Source: a virus
Lineage: Duplodnaviria > Heunggongvirae > Uroviricota > Caudoviricetes
Reading direction: 5' to 3' (one strand)
IMG/VR virus record: IMGVR_UViG_2698536610_000003
DNA length: 33,876 nt
The notes beneath the pieces were generated by a model. That model saw only the letters and a program-made list of their open reading frames with translations. It searched no databases and was not told the origin of the DNA. A program made the position numbers and the translations under genes. Shown here in pieces: positions 583 through 26,830 of the stretch (position 1 is its first letter; each line of letters starts with the position of its first letter).

Positions 583-1596
583 TTACTCTACTGTGGACAC
601 TGTGTGGACACTCTCGACCTCAGTACCACCTCTTAGCGGATTAAGAGAAATGGCGTCCTGAAGGTACTCTGGCGCAAAATGAGCGTAAACCATAGTTTGC
701 TCAATCCGCGTGTGACCTAGTATCCGTTGTAGCGTGATAATACTTCCTCCATTAATCATGAAATGAGTGGCAAAGCTGTGCCTTAGTGCATGTGTAGCTT
801 GCCCCATTGGCAAATCCGGTTTTATTGCTTTCATTGTTCGTCTGAAGCGAGGGTAATCAGCATCAGGGAATAAAAAACCTCGTTTGTTATCCGCGATCAT
901 TTTGGCAACAGCCTCTGAGATCGGGACGGTGCGTGGTTTGTTTGTTTTCGTTTTAACAAACGTGACGCGGTTATGGATGATATTTTCTGCTTTCAAACGA
1001 GCTGCTTCTCCCCAACGTGCTCCAGTACTCAGGCAAAGAATCGCAATCTTTTTGTTGTCGCCGTCAAGAGCAGCAAGCAGTAAGGCAATTTCTTCCTGCG
1101 TGAGATAGCCTGTGTCTGGTTTTTCCTCCTTAAGCCTTTTTGTCCCTCTGATAGGGTGCTCACCAAAGAATAACTCCGCTTCAATCAGGGCTGTAAACAT
1201 GCCGCTAATACATGTTAAATCACGATTGATACTCGAAGGTTTAATACCCTGACTTCTTCGGGTGGCGCAGTACTGGCTGATAAGCGATTTCGTAATTTGA
1301 AATGCGCATGGGTCATTCGTTATTTTTGTGAAGATTTCAATTTTCCCAAGATTAGATTTCCCATGCTCTTCGTGTTTACCCTTTAAATCCCACCAGATCT
1401 GTGTCAGCTCCGACAGACGTCGCTTGTCTGTTGGTTTTGATAGCCATTCTTTATTGTGGTGGTTGTACAACGTGTATTTCTCGAAAGCGACAGCTTCGCT
1501 TTTCTTATCAAACTTCCTACGGATGCGTTTTCCATTACGTCCAGTAGGGCGGATGTCCACTTCATATCGACCATCATCGAGTTTTTTGATTGCCAT
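583..1596 (-). CDS. int: tyrosine integrase (P2 Int-like)
   Basis: 337 aa; C-terminal HxxR (HALRHSF) and catalytic Tyr region (TMVYAHF); adjacent to attL; GGAGG-like RBS upstream. Confidence 0.93.
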   Translation of the reverse strand: MAIKKLDDGRYEVDIRPTGRNGKRIRRKFDKKSEAVAFEKYTLYNHHNKEWLSKPTDKRRLSELTQIWWDLKGKHEEHGKSNLGKIEIFTKITNDPCAFQITKSLISQYCATRRSQGIKPSSINRDLTCISGMFTALIEAELFFGEHPIRGTKRLKEEKPDTGYLTQEEIALLLAALDGDNKKIAILCLSTGARWGEAARLKAENIIHNRVTFVKTKTNKPRTVPISEAVAKMIADNKRGFLFPDADYPRFRRTMKAIKPDLPMGQATHALRHSFATHFMINGGSIITLQRILGHTRIEQTMVYAHFAPEYLQDAISLNPLRGGTEVESVHTVSTVE

Positions 1597-4165: not shown

Positions 4166-6410
4166 AGCCTCCGGGCGTTTTGTCCCTCCATCAGCATTTG
4201 CCGCAGGCACCGGTAAGGCGTTTACCGGTGCTTATGCATGGAACGCGCCACGCGAGGCTGTCGGGCGCGAAAGACCCCTTACACGTGACGAGATGCGTCA
4301 GGTGCAAGGTGTTTTATCCACGATTAACCGCCTGCCTTACTTTTTGCGCTCGCTGTTTACTTCACGCTATGACTACATCCGGCGCAATAAAAGCCCGGTG
4401 CACGGGTTTTATTTCCTCACATCCACTTTTCAGCGTCGTTTATGGCCGCGCATTGAGCGCGTGAATCAGCGCCATGAAATGAACACCGACGCGTCGTTGC
4501 TGTTTCTGGCAGAGCGTGACCATTATGCGCGTCTGCCGGGGATGAATGACAAGGAACTGAAAAAGTTTGCCGCCCGTATCTCATCGCAGCTTTTCATGAT
4601 GTATGAGGAACTCTGCGATGCATGGGTTGATGCACATGGCGAGAAAGAATCGCTGTTTACGGATGAGGCTCAGGCGCATCTGTATGGTCATGTTGCTGGC
4701 GCTGCACGAGCTTTCAATATTTCCCCTCTCTACTGGAAAAAATACCGTAAAGGACAGATGACCACGAGGCAGGCATATTCTGCCATTGCCCGTCTGTTTA
4801 ACGATGAGTGGTGGACTCATCAGCTTAAAGGTCAGCGTATGCGCTGGCATGAGGCGTTACTGATTGCTGTCGGGGAGGTGAATAAAGACCGTTCTCCTTA
4901 TGCCAGTAAACATGCCATTCGTGATGTGCGTGCGCGCCGCCAGGCAAATCTGGAATTTCTTAAATCGTGTGACCTTGAAAACAGGGAAACCGGCGAGCGC
5001 ATCGACCTTATCAGTAAGGTGATGGGAAGTATTTCTAATCCTGAAATTCGCCGGATGGAGCTGATGAACACCATTGCCGGTATTGAGCGTTACGCCGCCG
5101 CAGAGGGTGATGTGGGGATGTTTATCACGCTGACCGCGCCGTCAAAGTATCACCCGACACGTCAGGTCGGAAAAGGCGAAAGTAAAACCGTCCAGCTAAA
5201 TCACGGCTGGAACGATGAGGCATTTAATCCAAAGGATGCGCAGCGTTATCTCTGCCGCATCTGGAGCCTGATGCGCACGGCATTCAAGGATAATGATTTA
5301 CAGGTCTACGGTTTGCGTGTCGTCGAGCCACACCACGACGGAACGCCGCACTGGCATATGATGCTTTTTTGTAATCCACGTCAGCGTAACCAGATTATCG
5401 AAACCATGCGTCGCTACGCGCTCAAAGAGGATGGCGACGAAAGAGGAGCCGAGCGAAACCGTTTTCAGGCGAAACACCTTAACCGGGGCGGTGCTGCGGG
5501 GTATATCGCGAAATACATTTCAAAAAATATCGACGGCTATGCACTGGATGGTCAGCTCGATAACGATACTGGCAGACCTCTGAAAGATACTGCCGCGGCT
5601 GTTACTGCATGGGCGTCAACGTGGCGCATCCCGCAATTTAAAACGGTTGGTCTGCCGACAATGGGGGCTTACCGTGAACTACGCAAATTGCCTCGCGGCG
5701 TCAGCATTGCTGATGAGTTTGACGAACGCGTCGAGGCTGCACGCGCTGCCGCAGACAGTGGCGATTTTGCGTTGTATATCAGTGCGCAGGGTGGGGCAAA
5801 TGTTCCGCGCGATTGCCAGACTGTCAGAGTCGCCCGTAGCCCGTCGGATGAAGTTAACGAGTACGAGGAAGAAGTCGAGAGAGTGGTCGGCATTTACGCG
5901 CCGCATCTCGGCGCGCGTCATATTCATATCACCAGAACGACGGACTGGCGCATTGTTCCGAAAGTTCCGGTCGTGGAGCCTTTAACTTTAAAAAGCGGCA
6001 TCGCCGCGCCTCGGAGTCCTGTCAATAACTGTGGAAAGCTCACCAGTGGTGATACTTCGTTACCGGCTCCCACACCTTCTGAGCACGCTGCAGCAGTGCT
6101 TAATCTGGTTGATGACGGTGTTATCGAATGGAATGACCCGGAGGTCGTGAGGGTGCTCAGGGGCGCATTAAAACACGGCCTGAGAACACCAAATCGTCAG
6201 CAAAGAAACGGAAGCCCGTTAAAACCACATGAAATTGCACCATCGGCCAGGCTGACCCGGCCGGAACGATTGCAAATTACCCGTATCCGCGTTGACCTTG
6301 CTCAGAACGGTATCAGGCCTCAGCGATGGGAGCTTGAGGCGCTGGCGCGTGGGGCGATGGTGATTTATGATAATAAAAAATTCAAATATCCAGTGATTGA
6401 TGAGTGGTAA
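4155..6410 (+). CDS. A: replication initiation protein A (HUH rolling-circle endonuclease)
   Basis: About 751 aa from ATG 4155 (track starts at 4113; MAVKASGRF matches the P2 A N-terminus as I recall). HUH motif PHWHMML and tandem-tyrosine motif YIAKYISK read directly. Confidence 0.92.
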   Translation: MAVKASGRFVPPSAFAAGTGKAFTGAYAWNAPREAVGRERPLTRDEMRQVQGVLSTINRLPYFLRSLFTSRYDYIRRNKSPVHGFYFLTSTFQRRLWPRIERVNQRHEMNTDASLLFLAERDHYARLPGMNDKELKKFAARISSQLFMMYEELCDAWVDAHGEKESLFTDEAQAHLYGHVAGAARAFNISPLYWKKYRKGQMTTRQAYSAIARLFNDEWWTHQLKGQRMRWHEALLIAVGEVNKDRSPYASKHAIRDVRARRQANLEFLKSCDLENRETGERIDLISKVMGSISNPEIRRMELMNTIAGIERYAAAEGDVGMFITLTAPSKYHPTRQVGKGESKTVQLNHGWNDEAFNPKDAQRYLCRIWSLMRTAFKDNDLQVYGLRVVEPHHDGTPHWHMMLFCNPRQRNQIIETMRRYALKEDGDERGAERNRFQAKHLNRGGAAGYIAKYISKNIDGYALDGQLDNDTGRPLKDTAAAVTAWASTWRIPQFKTVGLPTMGAYRELRKLPRGVSIADEFDERVEAARAAADSGDFALYISAQGGANVPRDCQTVRVARSPSDEVNEYEEEVERVVGIYAPHLGARHIHITRTTDWRIVPKVPVVEPLTLKSGIAAPRSPVNNCGKLTSGDTSLPAPTPSEHAAAVLNLVDDGVIEWNDPEVVRVLRGALKHGLRTPNRQQRNGSPLKPHEIAPSARLTRPERLQITRIRVDLAQNGIRPQRWELEALARGAMVIYDNKKFKYPVIDEW

Positions 6411-6585: not shown

Positions 6586-7869
6586 TTATTGTGGCCAGTC
6601 CCAGTTATCATATTGTTGAATTTTTTCTGATAACACTTGAGGTGCACTACCGTGAGTTACATTTTCAGCATAACCAATCGTACCGACATAGTTAATGTCA
6701 TCAACATCAAGTGTATTGGCCTCCCATGGCCGTATCTTGCGAGTTGGTTCACAGATAGAAACGTCACGATTGATGGTTTTTAACCACGATATATTTATTA
6801 CATTTGCGCCTGCAGCTTTTAGATACATTCTGGCTGTTTCATGAGCATTTCCTTCAGTGCAAAAATCATCAATAACTAATATTTTCTTACCTTTCAATTT
6901 AGGAGGGTTGGTATATCTTTCGCCGGTGATGAGGTTTTTAATAGGGGCAGGATTTAAATTAACGGTGTTTATTTGAGATGTGATGTTTACTTCTTGCTTA
7001 GCTATCCGAGCTTGCTGTGATTTAATAGCTGTTGTATGTCGTAAGAATAGATCTTTTAGATACTTTCCTTTGAATGAGACTGCTAAACCTTTTAGGTCAT
7101 GCTCCATAATGTTTGCTAGTTTATAAGGATCTTCAGCGTTATGTCCAACGTAGGTGGTTATAAAACTTGCTCCTTCACTTAAGCCAGAGAAATAAATGCT
7201 AGCACCAAGATATCTTATCCAAAAATCGGGGCTTCCAACCGATAGCTTTGCGAGGTCTCTTGCATTGGCTGAATACATTGTAAATTCAGGGACATATGTG
7301 CTAAATGGTGCTAAGGCGTAGTAGTGAACATCTTCATTAAAATGCCCTTGCCATCCCCACAACTGCTCTCTTAAGCAAAAAACATCAATAAATCTAGCGA
7401 TTTCTTTGGGTTCTGAAAATTGAAAACCGTACTCAGTAACCGGTTCATACCAGGTCGCATTAATAAATAGGGTATTCCCGTTGGTAGCTGCTTGTAAGTC
7501 TTCCTGAGAACGCCCTACATAGATCATTTCGTTTCGTTTTAATTCTAACGCAGCCATGATGAAATCTATGGCCTTCCCTGTTTGTTTTGCTGGTATGTTG
7601 TTGTCGAGTTCACGGCAAAAGTGAATTGATTCTGGGAATTTCCTTTTTAGGTATTCGTCTAGTGTTACGATCCCGTCATGTGTTCTCACGTTTCTATTTT
7701 TATTTGTCAAGAAGATAACTTTAATCCCTTTTGATGACAAAAACGCAAACAACTTACGTAATTCAGAATCGATTCTAGATTTTAGTTCCTGAGGTTGAGT
7801 GTTAGATGTTAATGGTAATACAACATCTGCGATTGAAAATATAACTGCCTTTAAATACATATTATTCAT
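6586..7869 (-). CDS. PRTase-domain protein (ComF-like) with possible HAD-like N-terminal region
   Basis: 427 aa; PRPP-binding-loop-like KILVIDDFCTEGNAHE at aa 329-344 (compare hhhhDDhhTTGgT); N-terminal 140 aa shows a HAD-like motif order (hhhh-Thr, Lys, GxxxED) but with the first Asp replaced; AT-rich; start ATG overlaps upstream gene as ATGAATAA. Confidence 0.75.
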   Translation of the reverse strand: MNNMYLKAVIFSIADVVLPLTSNTQPQELKSRIDSELRKLFAFLSSKGIKVIFLTNKNRNVRTHDGIVTLDEYLKRKFPESIHFCRELDNNIPAKQTGKAIDFIMAALELKRNEMIYVGRSQEDLQAATNGNTLFINATWYEPVTEYGFQFSEPKEIARFIDVFCLREQLWGWQGHFNEDVHYYALAPFSTYVPEFTMYSANARDLAKLSVGSPDFWIRYLGASIYFSGLSEGASFITTYVGHNAEDPYKLANIMEHDLKGLAVSFKGKYLKDLFLRHTTAIKSQQARIAKQEVNITSQINTVNLNPAPIKNLITGERYTNPPKLKGKKILVIDDFCTEGNAHETARMYLKAAGANVINISWLKTINRDVSICEPTRKIRPWEANTLDVDDINYVGTIGYAENVTHGSAPQVLSEKIQQYDNWDWPQ

Positions 7870-8911
7870 CTCCCAGAAGAGAAAGTTGCTGTGTTTTTAC
7901 ACCGGATGCTGATTTAATTAAGCTTTGCACGTCTTTAAAATCGGATAGTGGAATATTCATTATCGTAGCTGAGTACTCTGACAAGGCATGTTTAATCTCT
8001 TCTTGAGGTGTAGTTCCCCTAAGTAAAGGACAAAGTATCGCTCTTTTTAATTGAGCAGCATATCTCACAGTATGAGATGTCCCACTTTTTAGGCCCCATT
8101 CAACTGGGATCAATACATCACTTAAAGCTGCTTGAATTCTATTTCTACGAACAAAGTTTTCCTGTGATGGTTTTTGGTTTGGTAAATACTCAGTAAGAAT
8201 CAGTCCGCCATTATTTACAATATGGCCTCTCATCTCGCCACTATTTTTGGGATAATTTGAGTTTACGCCAGTACCTAACACAGCAATTGTCGGTATTTTA
8301 AATAACAGGGATGCTTCATGTGCAGATTGATCTATACCATATGCTAAACCGCTTACAGTTGAATAATCCGAATCTATAAATTGCGAGATTACTGCTTGAG
8401 TTAAATAAATTCCAAGTGCGGTTGGGTTTCTGGTGCCGACAACTCCAACACACTTTTTATCTAGCAAGGATACATTGCCTTGAGCAAACAACCAGAAAGG
8501 CGGCTCAGACAGGTCATTCAACTTGTCTGGATAGCTCGGAGAACCATAGTGGATGATTTTGTAACCACTATTATGATAATGTGTGAGTAATATTTTAGCC
8601 GTAGAAATCATGCTGTCCCGAAAAACAGACCAATTGCCTTCATTCAAATAATAAGGTTGGCGATGAAGTTTTACTCCAAGTAGATACTCAAAGTTGGCTA
8701 ATGTTTGACTGGTAACAATGTCTCTAAATCTGATTCCCTTTTGAGCAACTTTATATAGAGTCCAATAACTAACGCCATGTATTTCTGATAGTGCCAACAA
8801 AGCGGCACTTTCTGTGTTCCATCGAGCTGTTTCAATATCCGTCATAATGTTCGCCAAAATGGAAGATTTTTTATCGCTTTTATCATAGGTTTGTATAAAA
8901 GTGTAGCACAT
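7862..8911 (-). CDS. DprA/Smf-like Rossmann-fold protein
   Basis: 349 aa; core VSGLAYGIDQSAHEASL...TIAVLGTGVNSNYPKNS...FVRRNRIQAALSDVLIPVEWGLKSGTSHTVRYAAQLKRA parallels DprA Rossmann signature (SGxAxGID..AH..AL, AVLG.G....YP, RNRI.A.LS); N-terminal helical region; AT-rich. Confidence 0.8.
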   Translation of the reverse strand: MCYTFIQTYDKSDKKSSILANIMTDIETARWNTESAALLALSEIHGVSYWTLYKVAQKGIRFRDIVTSQTLANFEYLLGVKLHRQPYYLNEGNWSVFRDSMISTAKILLTHYHNSGYKIIHYGSPSYPDKLNDLSEPPFWLFAQGNVSLLDKKCVGVVGTRNPTALGIYLTQAVISQFIDSDYSTVSGLAYGIDQSAHEASLLFKIPTIAVLGTGVNSNYPKNSGEMRGHIVNNGGLILTEYLPNQKPSQENFVRRNRIQAALSDVLIPVEWGLKSGTSHTVRYAAQLKRAILCPLLRGTTPQEEIKHALSEYSATIMNIPLSDFKDVQSLIKSASGVKTQQLSLLGDE

Positions 8912-20911: not shown

Positions 20912-23230
20912 ATGAGCACAAAATTCAGAACCGTTATCACCACTGCCGGTGCAGCAAAGCTGGCAGCGGCAACCGCACCGGGAGGGCGGAAGGTCAACAT
21001 TACCACGATGGCCGTCGGGGATGGCGGTGGTAAATTGCCTGTCCCGGATGCCGGACAGACCGGACTTATTCACGAAGTCTGGCGACATACGCTGAACAAA
21101 ATCAGCCAGGACAAACGAAACAGTAATTATATTATCGCAGAGCTGGTTATTCCGCCGGAGGTGGGCGGTTTCTGGATGCGTGAGCTTGGCCTGTACGATG
21201 ATGCGGGAACGTTAATTGCCGTGGCGAACATGGCCGAAAGTTATAAGCCAGCTCTTGCCGAAGGCTCAGGGCGTTCGCAGACCTGTCGCATGGTCATCAT
21301 CGTCAGCAGTGTGGCCTCGGTGGAGCTGACCATTGACACCACAACGGTGATGGCGACACAGGATTACGTTGATGACAAAATTGCAGAGCACGAACAGTCA
21401 CGACGTCACCCGGACGCCTCGCTGACCGCAAAAGGTTTTACTCAGTTAAGCAGTGCGACCAACAGCACGTCTGAAACACTGGCCGCAACGCCGAAAGCGG
21501 TAAAGGCCGCCTATGACCTTGCTAACGGGAAATATACCGCACAGGACGCTACCACAGCACGAAAAGGCCTTGTCCAGCTCAGTAGTGCGACCAACAGCAC
21601 GTCTGAAACACTGGCCGCAACGCCGAAAGCGGTAAAGGCCGCCTATGACCTTGCTAACGGGAAATACACTGCACAGGACGCCACTACAGCGCGAAAAGGT
21701 CTTGCCCAGCTCAGTAGCGCCACCAACAGCGATTCTGAAACGCTTGCGGCAACACCAAAGGCGGTTAAGACAGCGTATGACCTTGCTAACGGGAAATACA
21801 CTGCACAGGATGCCACCACGGTGCGAAAAGGTCTTGTCCAGCTCAGTAGCGCCACCAACAGTGATTCTGAAACCCTCGCGGCAACGCCAAAAGCAGTGAA
21901 GTCTGCCTATGACAATGCTGAAAAACGTCTTCAGAAAGATCAGAACGGTGCGGATATTCCGGGAAAGGATACCTTCACGAAAAATATCGGTGCCTGTCGT
22001 GCTTATAGCGGCGCTTTGAGCACTGAAGCCGGAAACTGGACAACCGCTCAGTTTATTGAATGGCTGGATTCCCGTGGTGCATTTAATCATCCGTACTGGA
22101 TGTGCAAAGGCTCCTGGTCATATGCAAATAACAAAATCATTACGGATACCGGATGTGGTGATATCCACCTGGCTGGTTGTGTCGTCGAGGTCATGGGAAC
22201 TAAATCTGCAATCACTATCCGAGTGACCACGCCGACAACATCAAGTGGTGGCGGTACAACCAGCGCGCAATTCACTTACATTAATCATGGGGACGGCTAC
22301 TCCCCCGGCTGGCGTCGTGACTGGAATCGTCAGGGCGACTCAATGACCGGAACGATTAATCAGGATGGCGGAAGCCAGAATGCCTATATGTCTACGGCCT
22401 TATGTTCAGGCACCAGAGGCGGCAAAAAATATCTCAGAAAGTTTCGTGGTGGAGAAGGAGATACTATCTGGCATGAAACAGTACAGGGCGAGGTAATTCG
22501 CTGGGCGACAGGTAATACTGATGCTCGGGAAGAATTATCACTCAGCTCTGTTTATGGTCTTCGTTCAAGAGGTGAAATTACATCGCTCAGTGCTAATGGT
22601 CTGCGCGTTGCTTATGGCAATTATGGATTCTTTATCAGGAATGATGGCGGCAGCACATATTTAATGCTGACGGCCTCTGGCGATAAATTTGGGACATGGA
22701 ACGGCTTAAGACCGCTGACTATCAATAACGCCAATGGCGGAGTGTCAATGGGGCATGGCCTGAGTGTTACAGGTGATATTGTCTCAAGTACCAAAGTACG
22801 TGCCGGTAGCGGGAAAAAGTTCACGGTCAGCAGCAGCAATACATCCACGAAGGAAGCCGCATTCAATTTGTGGGGAAACTCAAGTCGTCCTGTGGTGGCT
22901 GAATTAGGTGATGATGCAGGCTGGCATTTTTACAGTCAGAGAAATACAGATAACAGCATCACTTTTGCTGTTAACGGTCAGGTATCACCATCTAACTATG
23001 GCAACTTTGATTCACGCTATGTCCGGGATATCCGGCTTGGTGGTGCTGCCACATACAAACCTGCGAACAATGGCATGACATGGACACATCAGGCACCGTC
23101 CGGGTGTGTATATTCTGGCATTATTGTTCAGGATACCGGCTCAAACTCTGCCGATAACATTGGTGGCGTATATTACAGACCGGTGCAGAAATACATTAAC
23201 GGGACATGGTATAACGTGGCACAGGTATAA
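20912..23230 (+). CDS. H: tail fibre protein H (mosaic: P2-like N-terminus, four tandem fibre repeats, divergent distal domain)
   Basis: 772 aa (P2 H is shorter as I recall); conserved N-terminal 170 aa; repeats QLSSATNS[TD]SETLAATPKAVK...; C-terminal half unlike P2 H. Confidence 0.88.
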   Translation: MSTKFRTVITTAGAAKLAAATAPGGRKVNITTMAVGDGGGKLPVPDAGQTGLIHEVWRHTLNKISQDKRNSNYIIAELVIPPEVGGFWMRELGLYDDAGTLIAVANMAESYKPALAEGSGRSQTCRMVIIVSSVASVELTIDTTTVMATQDYVDDKIAEHEQSRRHPDASLTAKGFTQLSSATNSTSETLAATPKAVKAAYDLANGKYTAQDATTARKGLVQLSSATNSTSETLAATPKAVKAAYDLANGKYTAQDATTARKGLAQLSSATNSDSETLAATPKAVKTAYDLANGKYTAQDATTVRKGLVQLSSATNSDSETLAATPKAVKSAYDNAEKRLQKDQNGADIPGKDTFTKNIGACRAYSGALSTEAGNWTTAQFIEWLDSRGAFNHPYWMCKGSWSYANNKIITDTGCGDIHLAGCVVEVMGTKSAITIRVTTPTTSSGGGTTSAQFTYINHGDGYSPGWRRDWNRQGDSMTGTINQDGGSQNAYMSTALCSGTRGGKKYLRKFRGGEGDTIWHETVQGEVIRWATGNTDAREELSLSSVYGLRSRGEITSLSANGLRVAYGNYGFFIRNDGGSTYLMLTASGDKFGTWNGLRPLTINNANGGVSMGHGLSVTGDIVSSTKVRAGSGKKFTVSSSNTSTKEAAFNLWGNSSRPVVAELGDDAGWHFYSQRNTDNSITFAVNGQVSPSNYGNFDSRYVRDIRLGGAATYKPANNGMTWTHQAPSGCVYSGIIVQDTGSNSADNIGGVYYRPVQKYINGTWYNVAQV
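21443..21928 (+). repeat. in-frame tandem repeat, 3 full copies of 132 bp (44 aa) plus a partial fourth, inside H
   Basis: Copies start at 21443, 21575, 21707, 21839; near-identical DNA with scattered synonymous and few non-synonymous differences. Confidence 0.9.
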
Positions 23231-23233
23231 TTT

Positions 23234-23761
23234 ATGCAGCATTTGATAAATATAACCGCGGGTAATCCAAAAACGGTTGAACAATATCAATTGACAAAGG
23301 ACTTTGATGTTGTCTGGTTTTTTACAGAAGATGGTAAGAACTGGTACGAAGAACAAAAGTATTTTGCTGATGACACGATAAAAATAGCGTACGACAAGGA
23401 TAATATTATCCGCTATATGGAAAAAGATGTGACAGCTATCAGACCAGATGGATTAAGTGTGGTTGAAGTGGCGGATATTACTGCTAACCGACGGGCGGAC
23501 ATTTCAGGGAACTGGATGTTTAAGGACGGCAAAGTGATTAAACGCATTTATACGGCAGAGGAATTGCAGCAGCAGGCAGAAAACCGGAAAGCCAGACTTC
23601 TTGCAGATGCTGAATCCGTGATTTTGCCGCTGGAGCGCGCGGTCAGACTGAACATGGCAACAGATGAGGAGCGTAGCCGACTGGATGCATGGGAGCGTTA
23701 CAGCGTTCTGGTCAGTCGTGTGGATCCTGCAAATCCTGAATGGCCGGAAATGCCGCAATAA
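23234..23761 (+). CDS. G: tail fibre assembly chaperone G
   Basis: 175 aa directly after H, same size and position as P2 G. Confidence 0.85.
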
Positions 23762-24043
23762 GTTGTATGAGCTCTGGTGTGAGCTTACATATCTATGGCA
23801 CAGAGTAAAGACTAATCTGACAGTCCGCTCTGTGCCAATAGCGGACGTAACAAGTATGATATTGGATGATGTTGCGAGGGGTGGTAGTCTGAAGCACGGC
23901 ATACGGCAATCGACCTAAAATGATGCCGTATTCAAGGAATTCTGGTATATGAGGCCTGTAAAATTGTTAACAGGATGCATACTTGTATGCAGCGCAAGTT
24001 ACCTTTAAGTTGGTTCAATTGAATAAACTATGTTTTCCCATGC

Positions 24044-24071
24044 TTGCATCATCGCTAGGTGAACATAAAAT
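24044..24071 (+). promoter_or_regulatory. candidate sigma70 promoter for the hotspot-2 cargo gene: -35 TTGCAT (24044..24049), 16-nt spacer, -10 TAAAAT (24066..24071)
   Basis: Hexamers and spacing read directly; about 36 bp upstream of ATG 24108, which has a GGAG RBS. Confidence 0.45.
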
Positions 24072-24107
24072 GTTCTGGAGATTAACGTTTAGGTTTATAG
24101 GAGCTTT

Positions 24108-25319
24108 ATGAGAGTAGAATTCACAGAAAGAACAAAGAATGTACTTGCTGGGAGAGCAGGATACCAATGTAGCCATCCTCAATGTTCAATAATAACTATT
24201 GGCCCAGGTGAAAAAGAGGATGAGACATCCAGCATCGGTGAGGCATCACATATTTATAGTGCAGCTAAAAATGGCCCCAGAGGGCAAGGTGGGCTAACAG
24301 AAGAACAGTTAAAAAGCCCTGAGAATGGAATTTGGCTATGTAAGGTACACGCAAGGTTAGTTGATACAAATAATGGAGCAGGATTTACCGCATCACAACT
24401 AATTAGTTGGAAAAAATATCATGAGGAATTCATTAAACATCACCAGGGAAGGATCGTCAATAAATTACATTGGATATCAAAACTATCAATAGTTGATAGT
24501 CCTTTATTTCAAGATTCAATAAGCATCGACTTTGCAAAAATAACAATTATTGAGAGTGATAGTAATGGCGCAGGGAAAACAGCAATATGCGAGTGGTTAT
24601 CAAGTGTCAGTGCAATAAATAGACTTGAGCGCTGGGTTAATTGTGAAAAGCTCAATATTGAAATTCATTTGCACACGCCAGAGCCACACTTAATTGAAGT
24701 GAGTGTAAATAGCGGAAGGATTTCCTATAAAGTTGATTCTCTTGACATTACCTCAAGTCCTTTTCCTTTTGCATGCTATTTTTTTGATTTTAATTACTCA
24801 AAGAAAAAATATAATAAAACATCTAACTTTTTTGCTGAGTTCATAAATATATCGCCAGTGCTACTTGAGAGTCTTTTTGATTATGTATGCAGAAACAAAA
24901 AAGGCATACTTAAATCAATCAGATTTGCTACTCAGGAAGAGCTGGAACAGGATGATGATAGTGAAGATGAAAAAGAGCGAGATATTCATGATATCTATTG
25001 CATGATACAAGGTAATGATTCTTATTTGCCTTTCGAGTGTTTATCTGGAAGTGAAAAAACTAGAGTGCTATTGGATGTTATAATCGCATCATTAAATGAG
25101 CGTTCCAAATACACACCGACACTACTTTTTATAGAAATGAATGAAACCTTTTTATCAAAGGAATCTTTTAAACCATACATTGAAAGATTGAATTCCATTG
25201 AGACTTCATTTCAAACCATCGTAACAACTCATTCGAACATATTAAATGAGTGTTCCGTAGGTTTTCCCCGTTATGAATTGATAAAAGGTATCAACACATC
25301 AACCTTGAGGAAAATATAA
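24108..25319 (+). CDS. HNH endonuclease fused to compact ABC-type (AAA_21-like) ATPase; candidate defence protein
   Basis: 403 aa. N-terminus: Zn-finger/HNH layout C21-x4-C26 ... ASHIY (H48) ... ENGIWLCKVH (N73, C78, H81) ... D86. C-terminus: Walker A-like SNGAGKT (K157), ABC signature-like LSGSEK (312-317), degenerate Walker B TLLFIEMNE (338-346), H-loop IVTTHS (H375). Strongly AT-rich. Confidence 0.75.
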   Translation: MRVEFTERTKNVLAGRAGYQCSHPQCSIITIGPGEKEDETSSIGEASHIYSAAKNGPRGQGGLTEEQLKSPENGIWLCKVHARLVDTNNGAGFTASQLISWKKYHEEFIKHHQGRIVNKLHWISKLSIVDSPLFQDSISIDFAKITIIESDSNGAGKTAICEWLSSVSAINRLERWVNCEKLNIEIHLHTPEPHLIEVSVNSGRISYKVDSLDITSSPFPFACYFFDFNYSKKKYNKTSNFFAEFINISPVLLESLFDYVCRNKKGILKSIRFATQEELEQDDDSEDEKERDIHDIYCMIQGNDSYLPFECLSGSEKTRVLLDVIIASLNERSKYTPTLLFIEMNETFLSKESFKPYIERLNSIETSFQTIVTTHSNILNECSVGFPRYELIKGINTSTLRKI

Positions 25320-25516
25320 AATAATCATTGTGTGATAAATTTTTAAAATGCCATTGTTTGTCAGGTCGAACTGGGTAAATGGATATAGTATTCATTCAAT
25401 AAACTGAATAAACCGTTGTCAACGTCCGCTCCTCGCTCAAAGCAGACAGTCAGATTTGATAGCATTTGGGCTATGTAAATTGTCAGGCGGAAAATGAGTG
25501 AGTACAAATCAGGACA

Positions 25517-25544
25517 GGCGGGCGAATTGCCCGCCTTTTCTTTA
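25517..25544 (+). terminator. rho-independent terminator after cargo gene (GGCGGGC-gaatt-GCCCGCC followed by TTTTCTTTA)
   Basis: Perfect 7-bp GC stem, 5-nt loop and T-rich tract read directly, about 200 bp past the cargo stop and just upstream of FI. Confidence 0.75.
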
Positions 25545-25545
25545 T

Positions 25546-25639
25546 CTGTTGTTTCATCCACTGACCAGCCAGGTCAAATAGCGTCTCATGCTCTGCACAA
25601 CAGAAAATAGTTGCACCCATTAACCACGGAGTTAAACGG
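25546..25639 (+). promoter_or_regulatory. expected late promoter region for the FI-FII-E-T-U-D operon
   Basis: Region between cargo terminator and FI start, placed by P2 organisation; motif not confidently assigned. Confidence 0.35.
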
Positions 25640-26830
25640 ATGAGTGACTATCATCACGGCGTGCAGGTGCTGGAGATTAACGACGGCACCCGCGTCATTT
25701 CCACCGTATCCACGGCCATTGTCGGCATGGTCTGCACGGCCAGCGATGCGGATGCGGAAACCTTCCCCCTCAATAAACCGGTGCTGATTACCAATGTGCA
25801 GAGTGCAATTGCAAAGGCCGGTAAAAAAGGCACGCTGGCGGCATCGTTGCAGGCCATCGCCGACCAGTCAAAACCGGTCACCGTTGTCGTGCGTGTGGAA
25901 GACGGCACCGGCGACGACGAGGAAGCGAAACTCGCGCAGACCGTTTCCAATATCATCGGCACCACTGACGAAAACGGTCAGTACACCGGACTGAAAGCCC
26001 TGCTGGCGGCGGAGTCGGTAACCGGTGTTAAACCGCGTATTCTCGGCGTGCCGGGGCTGGATACCAAAGAGGTGGCTGTTGCACTGGCATCAGTCTGTCA
26101 GAAGCTGCGCGCTTTCGGATATATCAGCGCATGGGGCTGTAAAACCATTTCCGAGGTGAAAGCCTACCGCCAGAATTTCAGCCAGCGTGAGCTGATGGTC
26201 ATCTGGCCGGATTTCCTCGCATGGGATACGGTCACCAGTACCACCGCCACCGCGTATGCCACCGCCCGTGCGCTGGGTCTGCGCGCTAAAATCGACCAGG
26301 AGCAGGGCTGGCATAAAACGCTGTCCAACGTCGGGGTGAACGGTGTTACCGGCATCAGCGCATCTGTATTCTGGGATTTGCAGGAGTCCGGCACCGATGC
26401 TGACCTGCTTAATGAGTCAGGCGTCACAACGCTGATTCGCCGCGACGGTTTCCGCTTCTGGGGTAACCGTACCTGCTCTGATGACCCGCTGTTCCTCTTT
26501 GAAAACTACACCCGCACCGCGCAGGTGCTGGCCGACACGATGGCTGAGGCGCACATGTGGGCGGTGGACAAGCCCATCACCGCAACGCTGATTCGCGACA
26601 TCGTTGACGGCATCAATGCCAAATTCCGTGAGCTGAAAACAAACGGCTATATCGTGGATGGCTCATGCTGGTTCAGCGAAGAATCCAACGATGCGGAAAC
26701 CCTCAAGGCCGGAAAACTGTATATCGACTACGACTATACACCGGTGCCTCCTCTCGAAAACCTGACCCTGCGCCAGCGTATTACCGATAAATACCTGGCA
26801 AATCTGGTCACCTCGGTTAACAGCAATTAA
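25640..26830 (+). CDS. FI: tail sheath protein FI
   Basis: 396 aa, same size and position as P2 FI. Confidence 0.93.
   Translation: MSDYHHGVQVLEINDGTRVISTVSTAIVGMVCTASDADAETFPLNKPVLITNVQSAIAKAGKKGTLAASLQAIADQSKPVTVVVRVEDGTGDDEEAKLAQTVSNIIGTTDENGQYTGLKALLAAESVTGVKPRILGVPGLDTKEVAVALASVCQKLRAFGYISAWGCKTISEVKAYRQNFSQRELMVIWPDFLAWDTVTSTTATAYATARALGLRAKIDQEQGWHKTLSNVGVNGVTGISASVFWDLQESGTDADLLNESGVTTLIRRDGFRFWGNRTCSDDPLFLFENYTRTAQVLADTMAEAHMWAVDKPITATLIRDIVDGINAKFRELKTNGYIVDGSCWFSEESNDAETLKAGKLYIDYDYTPVPPLENLTLRQRITDKYLANLVTSVNSN

Follow-up and report, generated by a model that had tools for sequence, protein, structure and literature searches.

What does a gene that joins a nuclease to an ATPase do among the tail genes of a P2-like prophage? 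The question is raised by the open reading frame (ORF) at 24108..25319 (plus strand) of IMG/VR record IMGVR_UViG_2698536610_000003, a 33,876-nucleotide stretch of Caudoviricetes DNA analyzed here at its full length and called the window. The entire window represents a P2-like prophage, 93-97% identical to Peduovirus genomes, with an integrase gene at 583..1596 and a host peptidase-U32 gene from 32515 onward. The 403-amino-acid product of the ORF carries an N-terminal HNH nuclease domain and a C-terminal ATP-binding cassette (ABC) ATPase head. We consider it probable, and short of assured, that this is a stand-alone, horizontally mobile immune gene, a moron in the slot between genes G and FI, most likely directed against phages and of the abortive-infection type; we infer its defense function, its trigger, the direction of its control by ATP, and its oligomerization alike. 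The coding sequence, its two domains, and the ATPase motifs are as follows (dN/dS, ratio of nonsynonymous to synonymous substitution rates).

24108..25319, plus strand: coding sequence of the HNH-ATPase fusion protein, 403 residues (RefSeq WP_053266709.1, "HNH endonuclease"; dN/dS 0.16-0.23)
24108..24458, plus strand: Cap5/SPARHA-type HNH (His-Me finger) nuclease domain, residues 1-117
24459..25316, plus strand: SMC/Rad50/RecF-like ABC ATPase head without a coiled coil, residues 118-403
24555..24581, plus strand: Walker A (P-loop) SDSNGAGKT, residues 150-158; GxNGsGKt aligned to GPNGSGKS of SMC1A
25041..25055, plus strand: ABC signature LSGSE, residues 312-316; aligned to LSGGEK of SMC1A
25119..25145, plus strand: degenerate Walker B TLLFIEMNE, residues 338-346; aligned to FVLDE of SMC1A
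25209..25235, plus strand: FQT...THS, H-loop region, residues 368-376; FQTvvts aligned to FQAIVISLK of SMC1A

By its sequence, the nuclease domain belongs to the Cap5/SPARHA-type effector clade. A profile of 35 family members matched the SPARHA HNH-APAZ effector (PDB 9om4) at E = 2.4e-19 and Cap5 structures at 2e-14 (7rwk) to 4e-6, and the query itself matched the PADLOC "Endonuclease / SAVED-HNH" effector models of CBASS at 1.4e-17. The PADLOC candidate PDC-M68A scored 3.6e-22; this alignment, of query residues 2-122 to positions 2-121 of a 253-position candidate profile, concerns the HNH part alone. The Pfam HNH_2 match was sub-threshold (E = 0.0098). The AlphaFold2 model has an N-terminal helix at residues 7-16, and the domain shows the expected catalytic residues (H48, N73, and H81), a Zn site (C21, C26, and C78), and a GPRG loop. 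Among ~160 near-full-length family members, to which all conservation percentages given here refer, H48 is conserved in 100%, N73 in 99%, H81 in 96%, and D86 in 99%; the three cysteines are kept in 96-99% and the GPRG loop in 93-99%. HNH domains of this clade are inactive as monomers or dimers and are activated when dimers pair into tetramers, which cleave DNA indiscriminately and with little sequence specificity; they are driven by different sensors (SAVED, or short prokaryotic Argonaute [pAgo]/APAZ) and are associated with STAND and ABC-3C systems (PMC12738770, PMC12141522).

The remaining 286 residues form a confidently predicted ABC head (AlphaFold2 model predicted local distance difference test, 84.3; predicted template modeling score, 0.73). 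Foldseek ranked SMC heads first (E = 2e-12), followed by Rad50, cohesin heads, RecF, and retron PtuA, and Pfam SMC_N gave a sub-threshold match (0.0082). A profile of the ATPase aligned motif by motif with the SMC1A head, its LSGGEK opposite LSGGEK and its sLD opposite ALD. The two halves of the head are joined by a short helical/beta region (residues ~228-300) with an acidic low-confidence loop, and no coiled coil is present in either the AlphaFold2 model or the SMC1A profile alignment.

The head is probably non-hydrolyzing. Its Walker A motif is nearly invariant (G156 and K157, 98%; T/S158, 99%), the signature is well kept (S313, 90%; E316, 83%), and the acidic Walker B position, E343 in the query, is D in 69% and E in 23% of members, or D/E in 92% together. 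The next position, M344 in the query, is occupied in the family by G, S, L, A, or W, and Glu is not among its five commonest residues; to our knowledge, the equivalent position holds the catalytic Glu in every hydrolyzing ABC ATPase. It is this want of Glu among the common residues that leads us to regard the head as probably unable to hydrolyze ATP. Read from these motifs, the elements for ATP-Mg binding and for an ATP-sandwiched head dimer appear to be kept, and the hydrolysis element appears to be lost family-wide. In the H-loop region, F368 (90%), Q369 (99%), and T370 (83%) are conserved and H375 is found in 13%; since SMC1A also lacks the H-loop His, its loss alone says little. The original prediction, made from the letters of the window alone, had described an N-terminal HNH nuclease on a minimal ABC-type ATPase with a degenerate Walker B and had called for a predicted structure. 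Its residue assignments (H48, N73, K157, and TLLFIEMNE at 338-346) are all correct, the matches to 9om4, 7rwk, and the CBASS HNH models bear out the nuclease, the model and its SMC/Rad50/RecF neighbors bear out the head, and the degeneracy of Walker B extends, with M344 at the catalytic Glu position, to the whole family.

A role in immunity is favored by relatives that carry other effectors on the same head. We found 80 homologue clusters at 90% identity (down to E = 1e-23), whose full-length relatives score from 1e-99 to 1e-266, and when the library searched is clustered at 50% identity, the family counts 227 representatives at E ≤ 1e-30. Its members come from Vibrio, Marinobacter, Serratia, Proteus, Salmonella, E. 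coli, and numerous metagenomes. In cluster P0131, a ThsB-type TIR domain (PADLOC, 8.7e-44; Pfam TIR_2, 6.8e-16) fronts the ATPase module, as it does in at least seven clusters (P0131 and P0220-P0225) from independent contigs, some of them 1.08 Mb and 4.5 Mb long. Ahead of the same module, P0166 has a CBASS-type TIR (1.3e-9), P0190 has DUF4062 (4.6e-21), and P0217 has an 88-residue N-terminus of unknown type. The ATPase of the TIR variant shares 41-47% identity with the ATPase of HNH-bearing members, which places the exchange within the family. A fixed putative sensor that takes different suicide effectors is the hallmark of prokaryotic immune proteins, and the defense reading is strengthened because the swaps include TIR domains. 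Among the TIR/DUF4062-variant loci (L017-L019), the DUF4062 variant adjoins two integrases, an IS110 element, and a DUF4365 protein. Shorter family matches, examined as possible split or ATPase-only genes, mostly look like 5'-truncated fragments with a partial HNH and do not support a two-gene form of the system.

The swaps also bear on two readings in which the protein would act on DNA for other ends. It could be a direct, non-suicidal restriction-type nuclease (type IV or ATP-dependent), whose ATP-bound head recognizes foreign or modified DNA that alone is cut by the HNH domain. Rad50 and SMC heads do bind DNA. Fusion to a DNA-sensing module is common among HNH restriction enzymes as well (PMC12738770), but cleavage by the Cap5/SPARHA clade is collateral and sequence independent (PMC12738770, PMC12141522), Pfam found no modification-reading domain, and the same ATPase carries TIR, which acts by NAD+ depletion or signaling. 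Because TIR domains do not cut DNA, a generic "kill switch" fits better than DNA targeting, and we regard a restriction-type enzyme as quite unlikely. Still more improbable is an accessory to DNA repair or recombination, in which a RecF/RecN/SbcC-like ATPase and nuclease would aid phage or host DNA processing: the top structural neighbors are indeed repair and maintenance ATPases (Rad50, RecF, and Smc), but the family as a whole has lost the catalytic Glu, the head is devoid of a coiled coil, and the HNH is of an immune-effector clade whose replacement by TIR or DUF4062 would make no sense for repair. Such an accessory would also sit poorly with a gene that is sporadic, low in GC, horizontally scattered, and missing from most P2-like phages.

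The setting of the gene points to cargo. The left neighbor (23234..23761) encodes a Caudo_TAP tail-fiber assembly protein (P2 G), the right neighbor (25640..26830) encodes the tail sheath (P2 FI), and between these tail genes, with GC contents of 0.55-0.60, lies a trough of 0.31-0.41 across the ORF. Comparison by blastn with four P2-like phages carrying other genes in the G-FI slot set the limits of the insert: backbone homology ends at 23834-23855 and restarts at 25408-25421, which places the cargo at about 23849..25421, between two inverted-repeat arms.

23849..25421, plus strand: cargo cassette, AT-rich insert replacing P2 Z/fun, set by the limits of backbone homology
23814..23848, unstranded: left inverted-repeat arm of hotspot 2, 35 nt, 80% complementary to 25422-25456
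25422..25456, unstranded: right inverted-repeat arm of hotspot 2, 35 nt, pairing with the left arm

The left arm holds a 7-bp hairpin of its own (GTCCGCT...AGCGGAC). The inverted repeat encloses the G-FI slot of every P2-like phage checked, whatever the cargo (NUDIX/HAD, EC46 ORF1/2, and others), and its arms match what GenBank AJ512680 (the P2-EC46 Z-region) annotates as "left/right inverted repeat." The ORF, the trough, and the identities of the neighbors agree with the original prediction of an AT-rich stand-alone gene between G and FI, and the Z-region repeats and variable cargo agree with its view that the gene replaces Z/fun. A conserved P2 backbone gene, one of the outcomes named as fatal to the prediction, is contradicted: the gene is present in 10 of 5426 complete E. 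coli genomes and its flanks are present in 1007, which marks it as variable cargo. For either domain, comparison of the E. coli, Serratia, and Proteus orthologues gives a dN/dS of 0.12-0.25; both the nuclease and the ATPase are under purifying selection.

The cassette recurs outside P2-like phages. A 1.64-kb segment (window 23823..25460) that takes in the inner parts of both repeat arms and all 280 nt of the upstream region has 87-89% identical counterparts in Serratia fonticola (L012 5732-7322), beside an Rhs locus, and in a prophage of Proteus mirabilis (L013 5724-7340), near the integrase end of this otherwise unrelated element. Since the same cassette is found in P2-like, Rhs-adjacent, and unrelated prophage settings, we treat the gene as a discrete mobile cassette; the recurrence of the cassette with the inner arms suggests exchange at the G-FI inverted repeats. 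The Proteus prophage has an extra repeat-like copy (L013 ~4303-4349), which precedes a second gene of unknown type.

Could the cargo be moving itself? If the protein were a selfish homing or mobility nuclease, carrying the repeat-bounded cassette that encodes it between genomes, the presence of cassette and inner arms in three unrelated contexts would be accounted for, and phage HNH genes are often homing endonucleases. Because the inverted repeats flank the slot in every P2-like phage checked, whatever it holds, mobility is not encoded by the HNH-ATPase cargo, and we rejected that idea; the distant Vibrio and Marinobacter homologues share the coding sequence only and not the repeat-holding flanks, and the clade of the HNH domain and its swapping for TIR argue for an effector role. 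We therefore hold a homing nuclease to be highly improbable.

More widely, eight genomic contexts of homologues are mostly mobile (integrases, insertion sequence elements, prophages, and an Rhs locus), and no neighboring gene is conserved across them. Directly 3' of the V. fluvialis homologue is a 107-residue ORF (L001 9284-9607), and directly 3' of the V. splendidus homologue is a 103-residue PIN_12 protein (L006 9373-9684); these small ORFs are probably unrelated to the HNH-ATPase gene, since they are not conserved between contexts. The phage records searched contained no close homologue of the gene and yielded N-terminal HNH matches only, such as P2-EC46 ORF2. That 368-residue protein, from the same slot (P2-EC46 Z-region, L015 488-1594), has a Cap5-type HNH N-terminus (family hidden Markov model, E = 1.8e-33) and an unrelated C-terminus of ~250 residues that is not an ATPase; it is the converse swap, the same HNH effector on a different putative sensor. 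By a comparison of length only, fiAA91-ss orf20 (L011 1192-2298), also in this slot, equals P2-EC46 ORF2.

Hotspot 1 of the same prophage (window 6586-8911, minus strand), between the replication gene and Q, has a GC content of 0.37-0.39 and carries ShosTA, with PADLOC matches of 4e-296 for ShosT and 5e-231 for ShosA; ShosA has a DprA-like DNA_processg_A domain. Indirect support for an anti-phage role comes from the hotspot location, the immune-type swapping of effectors, and ShosTA in the other hotspot. Another alternative is a conflict system against plasmids or other mobile elements (as are SMC-based Lamassu and Wadjet) or an addiction/toxin module that stabilizes the prophage or island. 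Such a system is unlikely in our view: the cassette has no antitoxin-like partner ORF, the head lacks a coiled coil with which to entrap DNA or extrude loops, and the prophage slot is the one in which P2 carries the anti-T5 gene fun, with ShosTA in the other slot.

Several observations weigh against an immune gene of the kind we favor, or against parts of it. The V. fluvialis homologue lies among housekeeping genes, and known defense genes were rarely observed directly beside homologues. PADLOC (database dated 2023) has no full-length model for the query, and its hits are HNH-only or weak ATPase matches. E45, which aligns with the Glu that bridges SPARHA and Cap5 tetramers, is kept in 32% of the family, so the oligomeric mechanism may differ from theirs. 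Finally, the close subgroup has an acidic residue, E346, at Walker B +3, and it could partly rescue hydrolysis.

How might the protein work if it is an abortive-infection gene? ABC-ATPase sensors with fused or partnered effectors are a described general framework (bioRxiv 10.1101/2024.01.29.577857). Within it, the N-terminal HNH would be the effector nuclease, kept inert until a tetramer arrangement is reached, and the coiled-coil-less C-terminal head would be both sensor and switch. Since the hydrolytic position does not have Glu as one of its common residues, ATP would serve as a ligand, not as fuel, and the head would be a natural "EQ-like" head. A dimer of ABC heads encloses two ATP molecules, and it is trapped when the catalytic Glu is removed, as in the EQ mutants of SMC and Rad50. 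A non-hydrolyzing switch that sets HNH oligomerization is proposed because the HNH needs tetramers and Glu-less heads stay ATP engaged. An infection cue would shift head engagement or oligomeric state; the cue may be a phage protein, an altered nucleotide pool, or the binding of phage DNA ends or structures to the surface of the head. The change in the heads would bring the HNH domains into an active arrangement, DNA would be degraded, and phage replication would stop. Control by ATP may run in either of two directions. The ATP-bound state may be off, with falling nucleotide levels triggering the nuclease; nucleotide depletion is the trigger reported for Gabija and Septu. Alternatively, ATP together with phage DNA or a phage protein may turn the protein on, as with Rad50 and Lamassu.

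A more specific form of this proposal is tentative, and we would sooner bet against it than for it. The protein may be a minimal single-chain immune switch of an undescribed kind: a hydrolysis-dead SMC/Rad50 head, using ATP only as molecular glue, would set the oligomeric state of an interchangeable N-terminal effector (Cap5-type HNH, ThsB-type TIR, CBASS-type TIR, or DUF4062) through head engagement, or through its loss when phage infection alters the nucleotide pool or exposes DNA ends.

Among known systems, Cap5 (HNH-SAVED) and the SPARHA HNH-APAZ protein share the HNH clade. Their sensors are SAVED, which binds cyclic nucleotides, or APAZ with a short Argonaute; here, the sensor would be an ABC ATPase head, and the candidate is a single gene. 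Pfam found no SAVED domain in the query, and the SAVED-HNH and Cap5 matches are confined to the N-terminal ~110-125 residues; the cassette has no CD-NTase cyclase or pAgo partner, and no cyclase lies beside homologues. In OLD, Gabija GajA, PARIS AriA-AriB, and HEC-04, the nuclease is a C-terminal Toprim, whereas the candidate has an N-terminal HNH. The ATPases of OLD, GajA, PARIS, and HEC-04 keep a canonical Walker B. Neither Pfam nor PADLOC found a Toprim domain in the query, and the PADLOC GajA and AriA matches are partial and weak, at 1e-4 to 8e-3 (GajA, residues 324-384, 1.4e-4). In Septu, an ABC ATPase (PtuA) works with a separate HNH protein (PtuB), whereas the candidate is one chain; the PtuAB effectors of Septu and of retrons Ec78/Ec83 also differ from it in domain order and inserts. 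The NCBIfam PtuA equivalog NF041760 scored 15.8 bits on the query (cut-off, 500), and the PADLOC PtuA match (3.6e-4) covers 44 residues only. The PtuB HNH is of a diverged, monomeric nicking clade (PMC12738770).

Lamassu and ABC-3C systems are alike in that an SMC-like ATPase, LmuB, controls swappable effectors, including immune-type nucleases; in Lamassu, the effector LmuA is sequestered and then released. The Cap5/SPARHA HNH clade has been reported among ABC-3C effectors (PMC12738770). LmuB, however, has a coiled coil and comes with LmuA and LmuC genes, whereas the candidate has neither a coiled coil nor conserved neighbors, and PADLOC gave no LmuB match to the query at E ≤ 1. Menshen NsnB sets a precedent from a defense system, being an SMC-like ABC ATPase that lacks a coiled coil and whose Walker B is degenerate (DE to EN) (PMC12065111); it differs in belonging to a three-gene system with other effectors and no fused HNH. 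PADLOC gave no NsnB match to the query, and the TIR variant P0131 alone was matched, weakly (4.5e-5). P2 Fun/Z is alike in its slot, in its inverted repeats, and in being an AT-rich moron expressed from the prophage; we saw no sequence relationship between it and the HNH-ATPase protein.

The original prediction had likened the protein to OLD, Gabija, PARIS, and Septu. At the level of class the likeness stands, in that the sequence appears to fit the ABC-ATPase-plus-effector class (OLD, Gabija, Septu, PARIS, Lamassu, and HEC-01 to HEC-04) and none of the named families tested; in detail it does not, for the nuclease is closest to Cap5/SPARHA and the ATPase to SMC/Rad50/RecF/PtuA. OLD, Gabija, and PARIS are not the best nuclease analogues because their nucleases are Toprim, nor is Septu, because the PtuB HNH is of the different, monomeric clade noted above. 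That the architecture belongs to no named system, as also proposed, agrees with partial or weak matches from PADLOC, NCBIfam, and Pfam and with an empty literature search. PHROGs matches to the query are to families of unknown function only. We found no paper on PDC-M68, and the literature searched, outside which the Krishnan et al. 2020 classification falls, names no HNH or TIR fusion to such an ABC head. The Rousset 2022 and 2026 papers on P2/P4 hotspots, one centered on the old/tin locus and the other mainly testing P4 loci, mention neither HNH cargo nor an HNH-ATPase architecture.

How is the gene expressed? The region around the ORF has the following candidate signals.

23976..23991, unstranded: perfect palindrome TGCATAC-TT-GTATGCA, ~120 nt ahead of the start codon, within the conserved 5' region
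24044..24071, plus strand: weak candidate sigma-70 promoter TTGCAT-N16-TAAAAT, found by reading the sequence
24099..24103, plus strand: ribosome-binding site AGGAG, 4 nt upstream of the ATG at 24108
25516..25546, plus strand: intrinsic terminator of the P2 backbone, between the cargo slot and FI; 9-bp stem with 7 G-C pairs and a T-run

Of the signals in the original prediction, the ribosome-binding site is present as described. The promoter is there in its parts, TTGCAT (24044-24049) and TAAAAT (24066-24071) separated by 16 nt, but its −35 hexamer agrees with TTGACA at 3 of 6 positions and the consensus promoter scan did not report the site. Promoter-like sites are scarcer in the region than in shuffled sequence (1 versus 7.0 ± 3.0). 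The candidate promoter is kept with the gene in three genomic contexts at ~89% identity, which equals the level of the coding sequence. The Proteus copy preserves the palindrome, and the Serratia copy has changes in it; the palindrome may serve as an operator or form an RNA hairpin. As for the strong terminator credited to the gene, the hairpin (25516..25536) and the T-run that follows exist, but they belong to the P2 backbone: homology to the backbone resumes at ~25408-25421, upstream of the hairpin, and on this ground we rejected it as the gene's own. The hairpin lies within sequence that is 93-97% shared with P2-like phages of other cargo and is common to all P2-like phages checked. An Rfam scan of 23600-25700 returned nothing credible, the top match scoring 14.8 bits against a gathering score of 290.

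Elsewhere in the window, the gene for tail fiber H (20912-23230) encodes four tandem copies of a ~40-residue motif, …LSSATNS(T/D)SETLAATPKAVK(A/T)AYDLANGKYTAQDATT(A/V)RKGL…, and its GC content falls toward the 3' end, a drop that a mosaic receptor-binding region would be expected to show.

ABC-ATPase-plus-effector systems (OLD, Gabija, Septu, PARIS, Lamassu, and HEC) make up a large share of bacterial immunity. How they sense infection, and what ATP binding contributes as opposed to hydrolysis, are open questions (bioRxiv 10.1101/2024.01.29.577857). The HNH-ATPase family offers a very small test case, a single 400-residue chain, with a useful property: the catalytic Glu appears to have been lost naturally while the ATP-binding and dimerization motifs were kept. 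Its effector is a well-understood, oligomerization-activated HNH that is exchanged for TIR in relatives, so that family-wide loss of the Glu and HNH/TIR swapping on a 286-residue head together make an unusually tractable test of binding versus hydrolysis. For P2-like phages, the gene adds an unannotated candidate to the second cargo slot, where a specialist would expect more ABC-ATPase candidates, and its inverted-repeat-bounded cassette appears to have been exchanged between P2-like phages, another type of prophage, and a chromosomal Rhs locus. If the single-chain switch proposed above is real, the family would be a compact model of how ABC heads turn the sensing of a ligand into the oligomerization of an effector, and such switching would need no coiled coils, partner subunits, or ATP turnover.

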